Assembly: GCA_032161105.1 (NCBI GenBank)
Contig: JAVHTD010000011.1
Reading direction: 5' to 3' (one strand)
DNA: 64,000 nt
DNA from: Candidatus Thermosaccharophagus tengchongensis
GTDB taxonomy: Bacteria > Armatimonadota > Fervidibacteria > Fervidibacterales > Thermosaccharophagaceae
Part shown: in pieces, positions 1-6,000 of the stretch
How positions within the stretch are numbered: the first letter of the stretch is position 1
Layout of the letters: every line of letters starts with the position of its first letter
Made by a program: the position numbers

Positions 1-3000
1 TTGTCAACGGGACTTGGAACGCAAAGGTCATCGCTCTTGCCCCGGGCGTGACGAGTGTTGAACCATCCGAAGGGGCATACACTTTCCAGAACGCAAAAGC
101 CTCACTTGCATGTGACCTTATCGGTCAACCGAAAACCGTAAACGGCACAGTTGAAACCATATGGAGCAGCAATGAAGCAGCATGGGTTGGTTTAGCGGGA
201 GAAATTGTCAACAACGCCATCAACGGGGAAGTTGGCTTCATGGCTCGCTTCGGCGCTTTCACAGCGCATGCCAACGGACCTATCACACTGGAAAAGCAAT
301 GAACGCCAATGAGAAGATGTTTGCCCACGATAAACTCAAGCCGATTCTTCTCGCCTCGGAATAAACTTGCACCATATGTAATCGCACTCATCTCTTGCCC
401 ATCCAACGGTGAGAGTTAAGTTGCCAACTATTGTCGCGTCGTCCCATCACTTGAGAAGTAACTGCCTTTCGTGTGACCTCGTTTCGCCTATTGCCGTAAC
501 TCGTATTGCCGGCTCATCCCTGACTGGGCATGAGTGCTCGCATATTCCACATCCTATGCACTTTGTTGGGTCAACGAATGGACGCTTCAACTCAACAACA
601 GTCCCATCTCGCCTCTTTACTGTCACCGTCCTTGTGAAGATGGCTTTCGGTGAGACTGGGCAAACCTCCTGACATACAAGGCATGGTATGTCCATTGCCC
701 AAGGGAGGCATCTTCCCCAGTCATAGAAAGCAGTCCCAATCCTTATCGGACCAAGTTCGGAGAACTCTCCGAGCCCGAGCTTTTGCTCAACAGTTATGCG
801 CTGTATGGCGCCAGTCGGGCAAACCTGCCCACACAGCGTGCAATTGAGCTCGCAATATCCGAGCCTCATGTCAAGTATTGGCGTGAACATGCCCTCAATC
901 CCGGCTTCATACAATGCCGGCTGAAGAGCATTTGTTGGGCACACGCGCATGCACTGTCCGCACTTGATGCACCTCTCAAGGAACTCAGGTTCCGAAACCG
1001 ATCCCGGTGGGCGAATGACTCGCTTGTCAAATGCCTTTTGGACCTTACCCGATAGGCGCGCAAACGGATAAAAGAGAAGCCCACAAAATCCGTAGAGCAA
1101 TAGCGCCCTGCGAGACCAGTCCGGATTTGTCACCTCTCCATCCCTCGGTGGGATGAATGCGAAGTTAAGCGCTGCATGTGGGCAATCCTCAAGGCAATTA
1201 AAACAGACCATGCATTCGGACTTGCGCAAACGCTTGTCTGGGTCGCTCGCGCCCTCACACGACCTAAGACACATACTGCACTGTGTGCACTTATTTTCAT
1301 CACGCTCAATTCGCCAGAGTGAGAAGCGGGACAGTATCCCAAGCAGCGCCCCAAGTGGGCATAATGTGCGGCAGAAAAAGCGCGGCAGGAGCAAGTTCAT
1401 TCCCAAGATGGCGATGAACAAGAAACCGATGAGCCACGAAAGATGATACTCATGTGGACGAACATAGATTGCGCCTGTGAGCATGTTCAATGCCGGCAGG
1501 ATGGCGGTCGCCATTGAGCGATGCAAAAGGCAAAGCGGGTCAAGCCAACCAACTTGAACAGACCCAAGCAGGGCAGCCACAAGCATAAATGCGAGCACAT
1601 AATACTTAGCCGAATACATGCGCCTGTATCTGTTTGAGTCAATCCGCTCCTTCAGCGGGCGTGTATTGAACAGCCACCCGACGAATTGGTTCAAAGCGCC
1701 CATCGGACAAACCCAACCGCAAAATACCCTGCCGAACAAAAGCGTTGCTGCGATTGTGATAAGCGCCAGAGTAAGCTCACCATACAACTTGCCGGTTGAA
1801 AGGAATGTGCTAACGGCAACCAATGGGTCAAGATGCAAAAACAGCGAGACCGGATAGCCCTTCATACGCTCAAGCGATTCAACGAAGATGAGGAAGGTGA
1901 AGAGGGCGACGAAGAAAACTTGAGAGACAACCCTCACTGTCGTAATGCGCATCCCGCCATCCACCTCCACAAAGGGAAATCCACAACCGCTCACCTGAGG
2001 CTTATAGCAGGGAGAGTAAGGTAATGCTTAAGCTGCTGAGGAATGATTCATCCGTTGCCCAATCACACTTGCACCTCTCTCCAGTTGAGCTCCTTCCAAT
2101 TCGGGTTGCCAATGCCCCTCTCCTTTGCCCTCTGCAGGTATTTGAGCTCCGATGGGTTTCTTTCAAGCAGCGTGTAACCTATGGCATCAACGGCAACTTG
2201 GTCAACGCCTGCAATGAGCGTATTCTTAACAGCAACATCACTCATGCTTCCGCCAGTCGGGCCGTTCCTCATTAGCACTCTTACGCCATCCAAGATGACG
2301 AGCGTTGGCGTTATCCAGCCAGCCAAGTCGGCAATGACACAGTGAATGTGTTGGTGGAATCTGTTTCTTGCCCCGCCGAGCAAGCCATACCAATTCTTCA
2401 TGCACAGTGAGGCGCTGCTTAGATTGTGATCCTTTACTGGTGCAACCCCTATAACTTTTGTTGCCCTCTTCAACGGCTCGTAAAAGGCTATCCATCTCTT
2501 CACCCTTTCTCCTCCAACCTCAACCATTTCAAACTTCGCCTGGTCTGGATAAACAAGTTTCGCTCCGGCTTCAAGCGCTGCGCGCTTTATGCCGGTCTTG
2601 ATGAAACACCCTTCGGGGTCGTTTATAGGGTTGTCCGCAACGATCACCTCTTTAGCTCCAGCCTCGTAGCACACCTCAATCACAGCTTTGAGCGTTTCCG
2701 GGTTTGTCGTAGCGCACAGCGACGGTGGGCGGTCAAATGCCGCATTCGGTTTGACGAAGACAACATCGCCACTTCGTATGAACTTTTGTGCACCACCGAG
2801 TGCATCAAATGCCGCACGAACCATCTTCGCCGGTGAGCTGCCTCGCACAATGACTAATTGCACATCTGACGGAGCGAGCTCAACGGCGAACTTCGGTATC
2901 CTGTGCGCTCGCCTTTCAGCGAGCTCACGAAAGTATTCCCTCCCGGTGCGCTTATCGTGAACCAATAGCCCACCGACGATTGTCCCAGCCACAGCCAAAC

Positions 3001-6000
3001 CGGTTGCGGCTAATCTCCTCACGAACTCACGCCTGTCAAAGCTGTCGGTGCCATTTGCCATCCTGCGCCTCACCACCAACTATGCCTGTGCGTTCTACTG
3101 CCTGAGTTTACCGAACAGCCTCTTTGAGAACTCCTCAGCTGACTTCAAATCGCCTGCCTCAACCACACCACCAAGCAAGTTACCTTTGCAAAATGCCACT
3201 GTGAATGAGCTTCCAACCTTTCCCGCAAACCACAGCTCACCATTGAGCCTTCCCTCGCTCACAACTTTCCCATATTTGCGCAGCGCACTCTTCCACCTGC
3301 TGAGCTTTGCTCTCGCATCATCAACGGATGAACATTTACACACAAAGGCTTTGAGCAACTTTCCGGCATGGCGATACTGAGCCGTATAAACCTCACTTAA
3401 GAAGTCGTAACCAAACGCCTTTCGCTTAATGTATGTGATGCTGTCTTGAATAAGCCCATCCTTTGGGAATACCTTAAGCCCCCAAATATCAACTGGCTCA
3501 ACTTGAAGCTGCGCATCAATAGCCTTTGCGATTGCCTCACATGCTTTCTTCAAATCGTCATCCTCAAACGGCACCACAACTTGCACATAGTGCTTCCCCT
3601 TCCAGAAGTAGATGCTACCGGCAGCTTGATAACCACCGTTGCCGAGTTTTATCGGCTTGCCAATGCCTGCCACCCTCTCGTAGGAGTAAATGCCGAAGGC
3701 ATTCTGCGGGCTGCCCATATCATAAACGAACACATCCACGAACTTCCCCTCGCCACCCTTCTCAGCTTGCCTATAGGATGTGCATATTAGTCCAACGACA
3801 TCGTAGCTGATGTATAACTCGGCACGCCCATCTATCTTCTCGTAGAGGTTGTCAGCGGTGTAGGTTTCTACCTTACTGCGCTTCCATCCACCCGCAATCG
3901 CTTCCGGGAAATGCAACTTGGCTTTCTCACCAGCAGATGTGGCGAATGCTGACTCCGAGAGCATGTAAAGGTTTGAATCATGCCTTTGCCCTCTGAACGC
4001 CACCCATACGGCAATGGAGAGCAATCCCAAAAGCAGAATGCAACATACAACTTGTTCACCCCTGCTCACAACCCGTTTAGGCTTTGACCATCTGCGATCA
4101 ATGTGTTCCCATAAGCCCCCAAATGCTCGCTTCAGCCGCACCATTGCAATGCGCCCCCCAATTTGGTTCATGTGAAGTGGCAACGAGACATTTTGAAGCA
4201 CGCCAGCATGGCTGCGCTGCTCACTTTTTAATCTCGCCAGCCGGCGGTATCACTTCCTTCGGGAAGTGTTCCGACTCCCATGCGAGCACGATTGAGTTCA
4301 AAGGTGGAGCACCCGCATGGTATTCAAGTTTTATCTTGTGCAGTCCTGCACTCAGCGTTAGCTTTGGGCTTGAATGCGAGCTTGGCGGTTGTATGCGCCA
4401 CGCATCAATTACGAGCTGGTCGTCAATCCACAGGCGTGCGGCATCATCAAGGTTGTCAAGGTAAAAGACATACCATCCATCCTTCGGGACGAGCAGCTGC
4501 CCTTCCCAGCGCACGCTGAAGTATTGGTCATTGATGTCAGGGTGAGGTGTTGGTCCCCAATTGTAGTCAATCTTTGACTCGGTGCGAGTCAGCACTTTCT
4601 TTGTGAAGCACGGACCGGGTGGCGGTTGCCAAAGCTGATATGTCTCATGATCCGGGTCGTCAAAGTATTCGGCAGTCAAGCCTTGAGGGAAAGTCATGAC
4701 TTCCTTCTCACCGTTTGGCAGCTGCCATGATAGGCGTATTGATGCGCCCGGTCCCGGACCTTGATGATACTCAACTTTGATCGTGTGCCAACCTTTGCTC
4801 AGGCGCATTGGCTGGCTTTGGTGTGTTGTCATTGGTTGAATGCGCCATGCATCAATGATGAGCTTGTCATCCACCCATAGCTTGCCTGCGTCGTCCAAGT
4901 TCTCAAGCATGAAGGTGTATGTGCCATCCTCAGGAACAAAGAACTTCCCGCTCCAACGCGCGCTCCAATATTGGTAGCCGAGCAATGGATGAGGTGTGGT
5001 GGGCTGATTCCATGCAAAGTTGATTTGCGGATCAACTCGCTTGAACACAAACCTCGTGAAAAATGGTCCTTTGGGTGGCGCTCCAACTTCGTATTCCGCA
5101 TGGTCTGGGTCGTCGTAATACCATCCGACAATGCCCCCCGGATACAACCCCCTATCGGCAAGCTCAACCTTCGGCGTCGGCAAAGGTGGCAAGCCCGGCA
5201 CCTTCTTTGGGCGCTCTATTGGCTCAACCGGTGGTTGTATCGTTGGTGGGCGTTCCAAACCAGTGACATGTTCTCCAGCTGGCTCAATGATGTAGGTGTC
5301 CTTTTCCCTGCGCCAACTCAATCTGAGCGGCGGGAGGATGATGTCAAGAAGGTCTTCAAGGTGGATGTCCTTAACAGCAATCGTCACTTTCCCCGAAGCA
5401 TTTGGAGCTACCTTTATCTTCACATTGGCTTGCTTGCTCAGAATGGAAGCCACCTCTTGAATTGGGGCATCTCGCACATCCAGTGAGACCTTTTGTGGCT
5501 TGGGTTGGGCATACAATGCGCTATGAAATTGCATCATCAGGAGGGATGCCAAAGCAATTCGCCAATGAAAGGCAACCTGATACATTGTTCACCCCCTCCC
5601 CTGGGCAAATCACATTTTGGTAGGGTTTGCACTTTCTATTTTGACACCCGCTTCCAACCGTCGGTTGACGGTAGGGCTTGCATGGCAAACAACAAATCCC
5701 AAAAACAGACTTCGCATCAGCGCCTGCGCTACGGATGGCTGCATAATGTGTCATATGCGTTAGAGGATTGAACCAAGGCATGTTCCCTTTACATGTGTCC
5801 TTTGAGCCGTCAAAATATCGGGCAGTGCATAGGAGTGAGACTTTAAAGGGGTGATTGAGCAATGAAGCATGATGTTTATCGTTACACCTTGCTTATGGCG
5901 ATAGCGATGACGAGCTGGGCGCTCGCTCACCTATGCAACAACATCTATCGGACGCCGGATAGGGTCATTGTGAAACCGGAGCGGCAGACAGTGATTGTAG

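Follow-up and report, generated by a model that had tools for sequence, protein, structure and literature searches.

A conserved DUF6599-DUF362-polyferredoxin unit in Candidatus Thermosaccharophagus tengchongensis: a candidate periplasm-facing redox complex, possibly with a nickel-pincer cofactor

What kind of membrane system is encoded by three co-directional genes, lying at positions 447-4144 on the minus strand of the 64,000-nucleotide stretch of the Candidatus Thermosaccharophagus tengchongensis genome analyzed here (the window)? The products are a DUF6599 protein, a DUF362 protein with a twin-arginine signal and a polyferredoxin that fuses NapH- and NapG-like parts. We examined the conservation of this trio, the relationship of its DUF362 protein to lactate racemase LarA and the evidence for a nickel-pincer cofactor.

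Gene order and the polyferredoxin

Open reading frames, Pfam matches and gene order agree with the initial annotation, which had described three genes in a row with these families (Table 1). The ATG at 4144, already set as the DUF6599 boundary, is the likely start of this gene, with a GTG at 4201 also open (ORF 3095-4201); for DUF362, the ATG at 3061 is likely and a TTG upstream at 3079 is open as well (ORF 2063-3079). The order DUF6599-DUF362-polyferredoxin is kept in 50/51 loci with DUF362 relatives (40-88% identity), the sole exception (L054) being a sequence that ends 117 bases past DUF362. These loci span records labelled Armatimonadota, Syntrophobacteraceae, Opitutaceae, Kiritimatiellae, Planctomycetota, Phycisphaerae and others, and overlapping start and stop codons are frequent among them. 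This strict conservation marks the trio as a unit, its order being kept far more often than chance would give. Among the 51 loci, that of the nearest relative, L014, is the only one that shares the upstream PA14 gene beside the trio. Besides an aldo-keto reductase (AKR) described below, no family recurs beside the trio in more than five of the 51 loci, and no conserved substrate-specific gene such as a transporter or regulator was seen there.

Table 1 Features of the trio and neighboring genes in the window
Feature	Position	Strand	Description
Polytopic polyferredoxin	447..1994	-	515 aa; NapH-NapG fusion, apparently of PFD type; Pfam Fer4_5 and several Fer4 families
NapG-like domain, aa 319-500	495..1040	-	four [4Fe-4S] motifs; predicted periplasmic
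Internal twin-arginine motif (S-R-R) and weakly hydrophobic fifth helix, aa 293-316, then Lys/Arg	1047..1118	-	
NapH-like part, aa 17-279	1158..1946	-	four TM helices, two CxxxCP and two predicted cytoplasmic CxxCxxCxxxCP motifs
DUF362 protein	2063..3061	-	332 aa; Pfam PF04015, E 4.5e-45; LarA N-terminal domain fold
H212-x9-K222-N223...H236 segment	2354..2428	-	aligned to LarA His174, Lys184, His198/His200 region
Twin-arginine signal, aa 8-34	2960..3040	-	R-R-E-F-V-R-R, then hydrophobic stretch
DUF6599 protein	3095..4144	-	349 aa; Pfam PF20244, E 4.9e-52
Most conserved DUF6599 loop, aa 101-111	3812..3844	-	K-I-D-G-K/R-A-E-L-Y; predicted on DUF362 pocket
DUF6599 N-terminal membrane anchor, aa 32-50	3995..4051	-	Lys/Arg before; hydropathy 2.85
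Protein with two PA14 domains	4221..5585	-	co-directional, upstream of trio; Pfam PA14, E 6.7e-45
Paralogous module	7386..10131	+	family matches: DsbD_2 7386-8045, second DUF6599 8054-9007, NapH-like 9013-10131

The paralogous module on the plus strand matches the DsbD-DUF6599-NapH-like trio reported earlier. Its NapH-like protein has no NapG domain, and a pair of its genes is also found upstream in L014. The genome holds six DUF362-type and three DUF6599 matches, two of the latter in the window and one on contig C28 adjoining a DUF362, where a second DUF6599-DUF362 pair had been noted.

In the polyferredoxin, NCBIfam models identify NapH-like (aa 17-279) and NapG-like (aa 319-500) regions, both far under the equivalog cut-offs; NapH-like proteins score against NosR and CcoG models as well. 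Four hydrophobic helices occur in the protein, along with two CxxxCP and six Cys4 motifs; each of the 28 cysteines is conserved in 96% or more of 46 orthologues. For the NapH-like part, we adopt by analogy the topology given for NapH in PMC5449189. Helix 5 stays under the Kyte-Doolittle threshold of 1.5 reached by the other four, and of the arginines preceding it R296 is found in 46/46 and R295 in 44/46 orthologues. According to that study, a NapH-NapG fusion homologue with these features needs both Sec and Tat, the NapG-like domain being placed outside by Tat (Tooke 2017, PMC5449189). The twin arginines, the weak fifth helix and the trailing Lys/Arg are features of the dual-targeted PFD as presented there, and by its sequence the polyferredoxin fits this Sec/Tat class.

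DUF362 as a LarA-like protein and its predicted contact with DUF6599

The invariant twin arginines pointed out previously were recovered in an alignment of 33 homologues (51-88% identity), where R10 and R11 are found in every sequence; the homologue search gave 3,913 proteins at E<=1e-10 among 8,000 candidates scored. The AlphaFold2 model places a helix at 10-34 over the signal region. Since the alignment showed no conserved A-x-A site, the signal peptide may be kept as a membrane anchor. The model is of good quality, as in the initial annotation, although its values (pLDDT 84.3, pTM 0.81) are lower than the earlier 88.8 and 0.83. In a VIA-align search of 48,161 chains, LarA-family chains again ranked first, with somewhat lower scores than before (14.1 versus 17.0): 7s91_A at Z 14.1 (204 residues aligned with an rmsd of 3.2), 9eia_A at Z 14.0 and 5huq_A at Z 13.1 (residues 73-303 of the model on 35-270 of the chain). 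They were the only strong matches (Z 12.1-14.1), the next unrelated one reaching Z 5.5. These data support a Tat-type exported, LarA-N-like protein. The relationship between DUF362 and Lar_N is already recorded in Pfam (clan CL0471).

The cofactor-binding residues of LarA had been left unmapped. An hhalign comparison of 19 diverse DUF362 with 13 LarA homologues (probability 74%, E 2.8e-5; LarA numbering tied to 5HUQ, also by the 66/10/16 spacing) places H212 at His174, K222 at Lys184 and H236/H238 at the positions of His198/His200. The mapping depends on this one result, because a HMMER profile search found no LarA and a shallow profile-profile comparison gave a probability of 0.2%. The segment with H212, K222, N223 and H236 is invariant in 33/33 homologues, and all 19 diverse sequences, cytoplasmic members included, share K104, H212, K222, N223, D287 and D292. 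The equivalents of Lys184 and His174 are invariant, whereas that of His200 is ambiguous by two positions: the invariant H236 lies two positions before the nickel-ligand column, and the aligned H238 is variable. Model confidence is low in this loop (pLDDT 50-70 over residues 211-235). An equivalent of LarA His108 is missing, as is the entire C-terminal domain, whose absence had been recognized earlier. By this alignment, DUF362 shares with LarA the cofactor-tethering lysine and one catalytic histidine of two, and it has a further histidine at the nickel-ligand position or beside it. The cytoplasmic members among the 19 sequences carry a 2x[4Fe-4S] domain inserted directly after the conserved histidine, and the Lar_N HMM matches such ferredoxin-inserted proteins over model positions 141-196.

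The DUF6599 model (pLDDT 88.5) shows a helix at 28-52 over the anchor, an N-terminal domain (75-215) resembling TP0453 (Z 7.9) and a PsbP/Mog1/PknH-sensor-like C-terminal domain (220-349; 1vr8_A Z 13.1, 4esq_A Z 11.6). In its most conserved loop, G106 and Y111 are invariant and K103, I104 and A108 are conserved to 90% or more among 33 sequences. The docking of DUF362 on DUF6599, proposed in the initial annotation, is backed by a complex model with an ipSAE of 0.64 (runs 0.64, 0.55, 0.64; best of three controls 0.00), partner pLDDT of at least 91 and at least 85% of contacts shared between runs. This mark is reached by 116/157 solved complexes and 2/215 mismatched pairs, counts that are a rough guide as own alignments were used here. 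The modelled interface sets the conserved loop against DUF362 residues 108-115, 146-147, 212-214, 236 and 265-274, with the lowest-error contacts at 108-109, 146-147, 212-214 and 266-269. DUF6599 probably caps the DUF362 active site, judging from this model, but the contact may also be a mere filling of the empty cofactor pocket.

Co-occurrence with nickel-pincer genes and a Tat-exported reductase

The genome encodes TatC and, in accordance with the earlier count, one LarE match above cut-off and one match each for LarB, LarC and Lar_N, the latter for a LarA homologue. In a phylum sample of 201 genomes (requested completeness >=90%; genome counts here and below not kinship-corrected), LarC accompanies DUF362 in 123 of 132 genomes and LarA in 90 of 100. 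Where LarA is absent (101 genomes), LarC is found in 52/59 genomes with DUF362 versus 14/42 without it, and 52/66 genomes with LarC but without LarA hold DUF362. DUF362 tracks LarC in this sample as tightly as LarA does. No lar gene adjoining a DUF362 gene was seen by eye among the listed coordinates of the sample. LarC is missing in nine of the 132 genomes, eight of which also lack LarB at completeness of 94-99%; DUF362 proteins from three of these eight keep the H-x9-K-N...H motif, two of them with a Tat-type signal followed by Cys. In 50 genomes with the trio, LarC occurs in 39 and LarB in 38; both are missing in nine, eight of these also without LarE. An Opitutaceae-labelled sample (151 genomes, completeness not displayed) showed LarC in 1/6 genomes with trio-type and 0/9 with paralogous DUF362, and LarA itself is accompanied by LarC there in only 6/20.

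In 38/51 loci the trio is joined by an AKR that bears a Tat signal and, at its C terminus, an Fe-S motif. This AKR has a catalytic Tyr/Lys, its best PDB match is 9YEB (E 3e-31), and its H187 and K238, both invariant, line up with the nickel ligand H144 and the covalent tether K200 of NphT. The AKR gene is absent from the window, where the contig begins 446 bases past the polyferredoxin stop, and also from L014; 13/51 loci have the trio without it, three of these cut by contig ends.

Proposed complex and competing explanations

We consider it likely that the trio forms a conserved redox complex facing the periplasm. The three proteins would assemble into one enzyme complex on the periplasmic side of the cytoplasmic membrane. 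Four Sec-inserted helices of the polyferredoxin would hold the cytoplasmic-side Fe-S clusters, while helix 5, with its preceding twin arginines, would direct the NapG-like domain, already folded and with its four clusters, to the outside through Tat, as in the homologue. By analogy with NapGH, the polyferredoxin could connect the periplasm with the quinone pool or with a donor in the cytoplasm; the quinone coupling through the NapH-like subunit suggested earlier has the same basis. DUF362, the presumed catalytic subunit, would fold in the cytoplasm and be exported by Tat, as its invariant arginines suggest. DUF6599, held by one N-terminal helix, would place its conserved loop on the DUF362 pocket and may replace the C-terminal lid domain of LarA. 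A pincer cofactor loaded before export could act as a hydride carrier bound to the protein in a compartment devoid of NAD(P)H, re-oxidised or re-reduced via the NapG-like clusters. LarA, NphT and the DUF362-CBM9 fusions lead us to guess, by analogy, at a hydroxy-acid or sugar-type C-H group as substrate.

The most likely cofactor is nickel-pincer nucleotide or something closely related, a proposal that we hold to be about as probable as not. The same complex could work without it, with the conserved Lys, His and Asp residues as ligands of a simple metal ion, of a different organic cofactor or of the substrate itself, and Tat being used since DUF362 must fold or join its partner before export. 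We regard this as a serious but less probable alternative. It would account for the eight near-complete genomes without LarB and LarC, for LarC in only 1/15 DUF362 genomes of the Opitutaceae-labelled sample, for Bacteroides thetaiotaomicron, which has a DUF362 match and no LarB, LarC or LarE above cut-off, and for the inexact alignment of the nickel-ligand histidine. DUF362-CBM9-dockerin fusions, reported in PMC5742341, hint at secretion of some family members; if exported unfolded, such dockerin-fused members could not carry a pre-loaded cofactor. However, LarA, a proven nickel-pincer family, shows like exceptions (10/100 in the phylum sample, 14/20 in the Opitutaceae-labelled one), and the strong link between LarC and DUF362 in LarA-less genomes, the tethering lysine in every diverse DUF362 sequence and the AKR with NphT-type His/Lys in related operons argue for the pincer. 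The initial reading as a periplasmic enzyme with a pre-loaded nickel-pincer is supported for the unit, the Tat-type DUF362, the docking and the PFD polyferredoxin, but the eight genomes with DUF362 and without LarB and LarC speak against its cofactor.

The DsbD_2 thiol-electron transporter joined to DUF6599 and a NapH-like protein in the paralogous module raises a different possibility, namely that the module serves reductive maintenance or maturation in the cell envelope, in the manner of MauM/MauN, CcoG or DsbD, and is not a catabolic or respiratory enzyme. The polyferredoxin would then export cytoplasmic electrons, which DUF362 and DUF6599 would hand to an envelope protein or metal. The NosR and CcoG scores, the PsbP/Mog1-like fold of DUF6599, typical of extrinsic or assembly/sensor proteins and not of enzymes, and the lack of a conserved transporter or regulator beside the trio fit this idea. 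Nevertheless, we deem it unlikely given the conserved, enzyme-like pocket homologous to the LarA active site, the frequent fourth gene for an AKR-type enzyme with catalytic Tyr/Lys, and the built-in ferredoxin domains of cytoplasmic DUF362 proteins, which point to a general redox-enzyme role. Very improbable, in our view, is that DUF362 acts as a carrier or insertase that supplies the AKR, or some other exported enzyme, with the pincer cofactor, DUF6599 being its membrane receptor. The co-encoded AKR and the loss of LarA's second catalytic histidine and C-domain would suit such a role, but the AKR is missing here, in L014 and in other trio loci, NphT was reportedly loaded with cofactor in vitro, and inserted ferredoxin domains make a pure carrier unlikely.

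The outer-face membrane enzyme complex with a pincer cofactor is the best explanation as a whole, held with about equal confidence and doubt. If true, the trio would represent a so far undescribed redox enzyme that faces outward from the membrane and is possibly equipped with the rare nickel-pincer cofactor.

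A conserved three-gene unit in the window and its relatives

The DUF6599, DUF362 and polyferredoxin genes at the beginning of the window form a real and strictly conserved unit. One genome per species was scanned with the DUF362 protein, which yielded 51 loci (40-88% identity), in all of which ORFs were called and then searched with the proteins of the window. The order DUF6599-DUF362-polyferredoxin on one strand is kept in 50/51 loci, often with overlapping stop and start codons, and a chance adjacency of the three genes was rejected on the basis of this conservation. The 51st locus (L054) ends 117 bases past the DUF362 gene; a single gene is spread over two ORFs in each of L018 and L063, the polyferredoxin frame of L038 is only partly open, and 4/51 loci are cut by contig ends. 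The record titles of the 51 loci name Armatimonadota, Syntrophobacteraceae and other 'delta proteobacteria', Opitutaceae, Verrucomicrobiia, Kiritimatiellae, Planctomycetota, Phycisphaerae and others. Besides an aldo-keto reductase (AKR) treated below, ORF clustering around the 51 loci revealed no family in more than 5 of them. In positions 1-6200, a scan for promoters gave 3 candidate sites where 4.6 were expected and one for terminators gave 10 against an expected 5.9, and an operon boundary was not found.

Features of the window in and around the three-gene unit
Feature	Position	Strand	Basis and remarks
Three consecutive ORFs	447-4201	minus	ORF calling
DUF6599 protein, PF20244	4144/4201-3095	minus	Pfam E 4.9e-52, 176.6 bits vs gathering score 27
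DUF362 protein, PF04015	3061/3079-2063	minus	Pfam E 4.5e-45, 154.6 bits vs gathering score 24
Polyferredoxin, 515 aa	1994-447	minus	Pfam Fer4_5 and other Fer4 families
PA14 protein, 454 aa	4221-5585	minus	two PA14 domains, weak STN/FecR_C-like N-terminus
Second module: DsbD_2, DUF6599, NapH-like	7386-10131	plus	no DUF362; NapG half missing from the NapH-like protein
HGD-D-like 2-hydroxyglutaryl-CoA dehydratase D-component and BcrAD/BadFG-type activator ATPase, adjoining	10144-12155	minus	E 1e-100 and E 3e-57

ORF calling, Pfam and NCBIfam thus agree with the initial annotation, which had described this row of three genes and a second module of DsbD, DUF6599 and a NapH-like protein. Likewise, the genome (2.74 Mb, 97% complete) does encode the proteins of nickel-pincer nucleotide synthesis and the single homologue of the lactate racemase LarA that had been listed for it, with one match each to LarB, LarC, LarE and Lar_N. 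In addition, it contains 3 DUF6599 matches, 2 NapH-like proteins, 6 DUF362-type matches and TatC. The second module ties DUF6599 to the thiol-electron transporter DsbD_2, and the same genes adjoin the trio in its nearest relative (L014). The PA14 protein, which lies directly upstream of the DUF6599 gene on the same strand, is kept in the nearest relative only.

The DUF362 protein with predicted export and its probable DUF6599 partner

DUF362 is a very widespread family; of 8,000 candidates that were scored, 3,913 are homologues at E<=1e-10. The DUF362 protein of the window begins with R-R-E-F-V-R-R followed by a hydrophobic stretch, and R10 and R11 are invariant in 33/33 sequences of 51-88% identity, as an initial alignment had indicated. 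A twin-arginine motif ahead of a hydrophobic stretch near the N-terminus is the pattern of Tat signals, and with TatC encoded in the genome the protein is a predicted Tat substrate. Three further DUF362 paralogues of the same genome (L003, L004 and L005 on contigs C20, C7 and C28) have twin-arginine-type N-termini as well; a fourth (L002, contig C14) has none, and all four keep the motif H-x9-K-N. A second kind of LarA-clan protein also looks exported, judging by its N-terminal twin-arginine-type signal: a 480-aa LarA-like protein (Lar_N E 7e-8) encoded at L088:1153-2595 on the plus strand in a genome titled Verrucomicrobiia (G029).

Besides the arginine pair, the 33 sequences share the invariant positions K104-P-N106, D110-R111, D143-N-P145, N147, K210-D-H212-N, K222-N-W-Y-G, R232, H236-Q, D258, N266-G-P-T-G-G271, D287 and D292. 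An Fe-S cluster inside the window's DUF362 protein was considered and rejected, the sole near-invariant cysteine being C152. The AlphaFold2 model (pLDDT 84.3, pTM 0.81, low confidence at 211-235) strongly matches LarA-family chains only (7s91_A Z 14.1, 9eia_A 14.0, 5huq_A 13.1, 9q3j_A 12.5, 4nar_A 12.1; next unrelated match Z 5.5). About 205 residues are aligned to the first four of these chains, with residues 73-303 lying on 35-270 of 5huq_A. The fold of the LarA N-terminal domain, as originally proposed, is therefore recovered in this model, and so is the noted lack of the LarA C-terminal domain, since the protein does not extend beyond the part homologous to the N-domain.

The resemblance to LarA as such is not new, because DUF362 and Lar_N already share the Pfam clan CL0471 (PMC11770544). 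At the level of residues, it became visible only with a broad sampling of sequences. A HMMER profile of the 33 DUF362 sequences did not retrieve LarA from the PDB (best E 0.37, unrelated chains), and a first hhalign comparison of narrow DUF362 and LarA alignments gave a probability of 0.2%. In contrast, 19 diverse DUF362 proteins aligned to a set of 13 LarA homologues with a probability of 74% (E 2.8e-5, 252 columns). This LarA set has the invariant residues H103, K179 and H195, plus H169 in its first sequence; their spacing of 66/10/16 is that of LarA His108, His174, Lys184 and His200, and the match to 5HUQ is offset by +4 to +6 relative to the numbering of the set. His108 and His174 are the acid/base residues of LarA (PMC11770544), and a lysine tethers the cofactor via a thioamide and a histidine binds the nickel (PMC13524815).

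The initial annotation had left the cofactor-binding residues unmapped. In the alignment, H212 of DUF362 falls on His174 and K222, invariant in 33/33 and 19/19 sequences, on Lys184, which provides a counterpart of the tethering lysine. The counterpart of the nickel ligand came out less clearly, as it is the variable H238 that is aligned to His200, and the invariant H236 stands two positions ahead. The site of His108 is occupied by D143-N144-P145, so that only one of the two catalytic histidines has an equivalent; single-histidine LarA-like enzymes do exist (PMC12611868). K104, H212, K222, N223, D287 and D292 are kept in 19/19 diverse DUF362 proteins. Cytoplasmic members of the family have a histidine in the column aligned to His200, directly followed by an inserted 2x[4Fe-4S] domain. 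The Lar_N model weakly matches such cytoplasmic DUF362 proteins of other genomes at model positions 141-196, and the proteins matched carry H-x9-K-x15-H. Examples of the cytoplasmic type are found at loci L077-L082 (e.g. L080:950-2137, minus strand), where the proteins are about 380 aa long, carry the 2x[4Fe-4S] ferredoxin insert right behind the conserved histidine and have a C-D-C motif at the C-terminus. As far as can be read from these alignments, DUF362 keeps the LarA lysine that tethers the cofactor, one of the two catalytic histidines and probably also the nickel ligand, the last with an ambiguity of two positions.

Altogether, DUF362 resembles the LarA superfamily of nickel-pincer nucleotide racemases and epimerases (PDB 5HUQ, 7S91, 9EIA, 9Q3J) in the fold of the N-terminal domain, the His174 and Lys184 equivalents and a nearby histidine. 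It differs from LarA in lacking the C-terminal domain and the His108 equivalent and in matching Pfam DUF362 but not Lar_N, and from any described LarA in its predicted Tat export and its pairing with Fe-S proteins. In our literature search, no paper combined 'nickel-pincer nucleotide' with 'twin-arginine'.

The DUF6599 protein has a single N-terminal helix with basic residues ahead of it. Across 33 sequences, its conserved core is a loop of the form K-I-D-G-K/R-A-E-L-Y, whereas neither Cys nor His is conserved anywhere. Its model (pLDDT 88.5) shows two domains behind the membrane anchor, of which the N-terminal one resembles TP0453 (Z 7.9) and the C-terminal one PsbP, Mog1 and the PknH sensor domain (1vr8_A Z 13.1, 4esq_A 11.6, 7cu8_A 10.0, 2XB3 7.2). 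The latter group (1VR8, 4ESQ, 7CU8, 2XB3) comprises extrinsic, membrane-associated, non-catalytic proteins; identity to them is 6-15%, DUF6599 differs in having two such domains behind an anchor, and the shared fold shows no function.

A docking of DUF362 on DUF6599, formerly proposed from gene order, gains support from a complex model of their periplasmic parts, each entered with its own alignment. Here, ipSAE values of 0.64, 0.55 and 0.64 were obtained, compared to 0.00 for the highest-scoring of three controls. The partners were modelled with a pLDDT of 91 or more, and no less than 85% of contacts were shared between runs. The ipSAE mark is reached by 116/157 solved complexes and 2/215 mismatched pairs, counts that serve only as a rough guide since own alignments were used here. 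In the modelled interface, loop 101-110 of DUF6599 lies on residues 108-115, 146-147, 212-214, 233, 236 and 265-274 of DUF362, which are the invariant ones lining the LarA-type pocket according to the hhalign alignment. The model thus supports binding of the two proteins, with the caveat that an empty cofactor pocket might itself draw a loop. We read DUF6599 as a putative stand-in for the lid that the C-terminal domain forms in LarA.

The polyferredoxin and a fourth gene of related operons

The polyferredoxin consists of a NapH-like (aa 17-279) and a NapG-like half (aa 319-500), as assigned by NCBIfam, both far under the equivalog cut-offs (NapH 91.9 bits vs 234, NapG 95.6 vs 269). A motif script identified four strongly hydrophobic helices, two CxxxCP and six Cys4 motifs. 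The four N-terminal helices come with the NapH-type motifs CxxxCP and CxxCxxCxxxCP. At aa 293-316, an internal S-R-R precedes a weakly hydrophobic stretch with Lys/Arg behind it; the hydropathy of this fifth helix is under the threshold that helices 1-4 reach, and four NapG-type [4Fe-4S] motifs follow. Among 46 orthologues, R296 is found in 46 and R295 in 44, and each of the 28 cluster cysteines is conserved in 96% or more. In contrast to the separate NapGH quinol dehydrogenase, the polyferredoxin is one fused protein, and its neighbourhood contains no genes for a nitrate reductase.

These features recall PFD, the 'polytopic polyferredoxin' Q1NSB0 of delta proteobacterium MLMS-1, termed a fusion of NapH and NapG by its authors (Tooke et al. 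2017, eLife, PMC5449189). PFD has five helices, a conserved RR directly ahead of helix 5, low hydrophobicity of this helix and positive charges behind it, and reporter fusions showed that it needs both Sec and Tat (PMC5449189). The window's polyferredoxin is alike in its five helices, the RR, weak helix 5 and positive charges, the cytoplasmic-side Fe-S motifs and the four NapG-type motifs. Since it shares all of these sequence features, we take its topology from PFD. By this homology, four helices inserted by Sec would carry clusters on the cytoplasmic side, and a four-cluster domain exported by Tat would lie outside. The type found in the window differs from PFD, for which the description consulted (PMC5449189) names neither partners nor a function, in that 50/51 loci encode it together with DUF362 and DUF6599. 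Quinol oxidation by the polyferredoxin is suggested by the analogy to NapGH only.

One further family recurs near the trio, namely the AKR mentioned above, which is present in 38/51 loci (after the polyferredoxin in 33, before DUF6599 in 5) and combines a Tat signal with a C-terminal Cys4 motif. This Tat-AKR is absent from the window, where the contig starts 446 bases past the polyferredoxin stop, and from the nearest relative; a search of the window's own genome with the Tat-AKR of locus L020 returned paralogues of 24-35% identity only and no orthologue. An alignment of 26 of the 38 Tat-AKRs shows Y95, K123, H187 and K238 to be invariant (26/26), along with four cysteines at the C-terminus. 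The best PDB match of the resulting profile is 9YEB (E 3e-31), the structure of NphT, a nickel-pincer (NPMN)-dependent hydride transferase of the AKR superfamily in which H144 is the nickel ligand and K200 the covalent tether (Semersky et al. 2026, PMC13524815). H187 and K238 of the Tat-AKRs fall on chain residues 147 and 203 of 9YEB, which correspond to H144 and K200 after an offset of +3 that also fits D47, Y52, K75 and H106 of NphT; both residues are missing from the canonical AKRs in the same search output. Tat-AKRs therefore resemble NphT in the cofactor-binding His and Lys as well as the AKR Tyr and Lys, whereas the Tat signal and the C-terminal Cys4 Fe-S motif set them apart from this 291-aa protein. 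Our literature search on periplasmic Tat-exported AKRs returned only unrelated papers.

Given the NphT-type His/Lys in the Tat-AKRs and the LarA residues in DUF362, most relatives would export two folds with cofactor-binding residues. This putative pair lends indirect support to a nickel-pincer cofactor in the window's own trio.

Cofactor synthesis and the probable function of the trio

If DUF362 uses a nickel-pincer cofactor, its distribution might follow that of cofactor synthesis. Among the 50 trio genomes, LarC is found in 39 and LarB in 38 (over cut-off); 9/50 have neither, of which 8 also lack LarE and 7 are titled Opitutaceae or Opitutae. We also looked at 151 genomes of one such family (that of genome G047, records titled Opitutaceae; completeness requested at least 90%), of which 28 encode LarC. 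Trio-type DUF362 occurs in 6 of them (1/6 with LarC) and paralogous Tat-DUF362 in 9 (0/9 with LarC). However, bona fide LarA (Lar_N, E<=1e-30), which served as the control, occurs in 20 genomes with LarC in only 6/20, and because this control fails, the family sample does not decide the question.

Occurrence of LarC, DUF362 and LarA in 201 genomes of the window's phylum (completeness 90-100%)
Group	Genomes
LarC	156/201
DUF362	132/201
LarA (E<=1e-30)	100/201
DUF362 genomes with LarC	123/132
LarA genomes with LarC	90/100
LarA-less, DUF362-bearing genomes with LarC	52/59
LarA-less, DUF362-less genomes with LarC	14/42

In the phylum sample, the association of DUF362 with LarC among LarA-less genomes corresponds to an odds ratio of about 15 with kinship ignored. 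A family-level table over the 30 families named for the sample reads 22/2/3/3. DUF362 is present in 52/66 genomes that have LarC but no LarA. Nine DUF362 genomes lack LarC, eight of them also LarB (completeness 94-99%). Five DUF362 proteins from LarC-less genomes all keep H-x9-K-N...H; four of these stem from three of the eight genomes without LarB and LarC, and in 2/4 a Tat-type signal precedes a Cys. B. thetaiotaomicron likewise has DUF362 and no larBCE match over the cut-off. Among the first 150 of 426 DUF362 matches listed, a comparison of coordinates by eye revealed no DUF362 gene in the same neighbourhood as larC. Altogether, these counts give moderate support to the view that DUF362 travels with cofactor synthesis, with real exceptions, which are as large as the exceptions seen for LarA. 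LarA without LarC was observed in 14/20 genomes of the family sample and 10/100 of the phylum sample; assemblies of 1 and 4 contigs (G334, G316) are among these genomes. Such cases may reflect cofactor salvage or another synthesis route. In two genomes without LarB or LarC (G267, G242), the DUF362 proteins of loci L097 and L098 show a twin-arginine motif and, behind it, a hydrophobic stretch with a Cys at its end, an arrangement that resembles a Tat lipoprotein signal.

Most likely, the trio is a membrane-bound, periplasm-facing oxidoreductase. The Sec/Tat-inserted NapH-NapG polyferredoxin would provide the electron path, the Tat-exported LarA-like DUF362 protein would be the catalytic subunit and DUF6599 a membrane-anchored cap. 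We are fairly confident of this three-part architecture. For a nickel-pincer or closely related cofactor in DUF362, the chances appear evenly balanced, and the combined statement of architecture and cofactor might equally well hold or fail. A precedent for part of this logic is the glucose-fructose oxidoreductase of Zymomonas mobilis, a periplasmic, Tat-exported enzyme with tightly bound NADP. It shares with the trio as proposed here a hydride-carrying cofactor bound before export, in a periplasm without free nicotinamide cofactor, and differs in its fold, its cofactor and the lack of an Fe-S partner.

A bolder and rather doubtful extension would have the nickel-pincer nucleotide take the place of NAD(P)H beyond the cytoplasmic membrane, in a compartment without NAD(P)H. 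Two unrelated folds, DUF362 and, in most relatives, the NphT-like Fe-S Tat-AKR, would be loaded in the cytoplasm, exported by Tat and coupled via the NapG-like Fe-S chain to the quinone pool, so that hydride chemistry on periplasmic organic substrates would be converted into one-electron transfer. We know of no description of such a conversion for this cofactor. On the same proposal, larBCE in LarA-less genomes would have DUF362 as its main 'missing' user.

Our literature search found no function assigned to DUF362; the family served as outgroup for LarA in one published study, and DUF362-CBM9-dockerin fusions have been published (PMC5742341). The term 'DUF6599' was found in no paper. As known nickel-pincer enzymes, PMC13524815 names LarA homologues, NphT and an NPAD-dependent ornithine cyclodeaminase, and PF04015, DUF362, PF20244 and PF09861 have 0 occurrences in the searched part of its supplements.

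The trio places two unstudied families, the very large DUF362 and DUF6599, in one shared context, and the PFD class, known since 2017 solely as a targeting curiosity, gains a testable function. The presence of larBCE in many genomes without LarA is the puzzle behind the discovery of NphT in 2026, and the DUF362 data bear on it. Should the cofactor reading prove true, DUF362 would take the nickel-pincer enzymes beyond the cytoplasm for the first time, and would also be the first of them connected to iron-sulfur clusters. Should it prove false, the three genes would still represent a conserved, undescribed envelope redox complex across several phyla.
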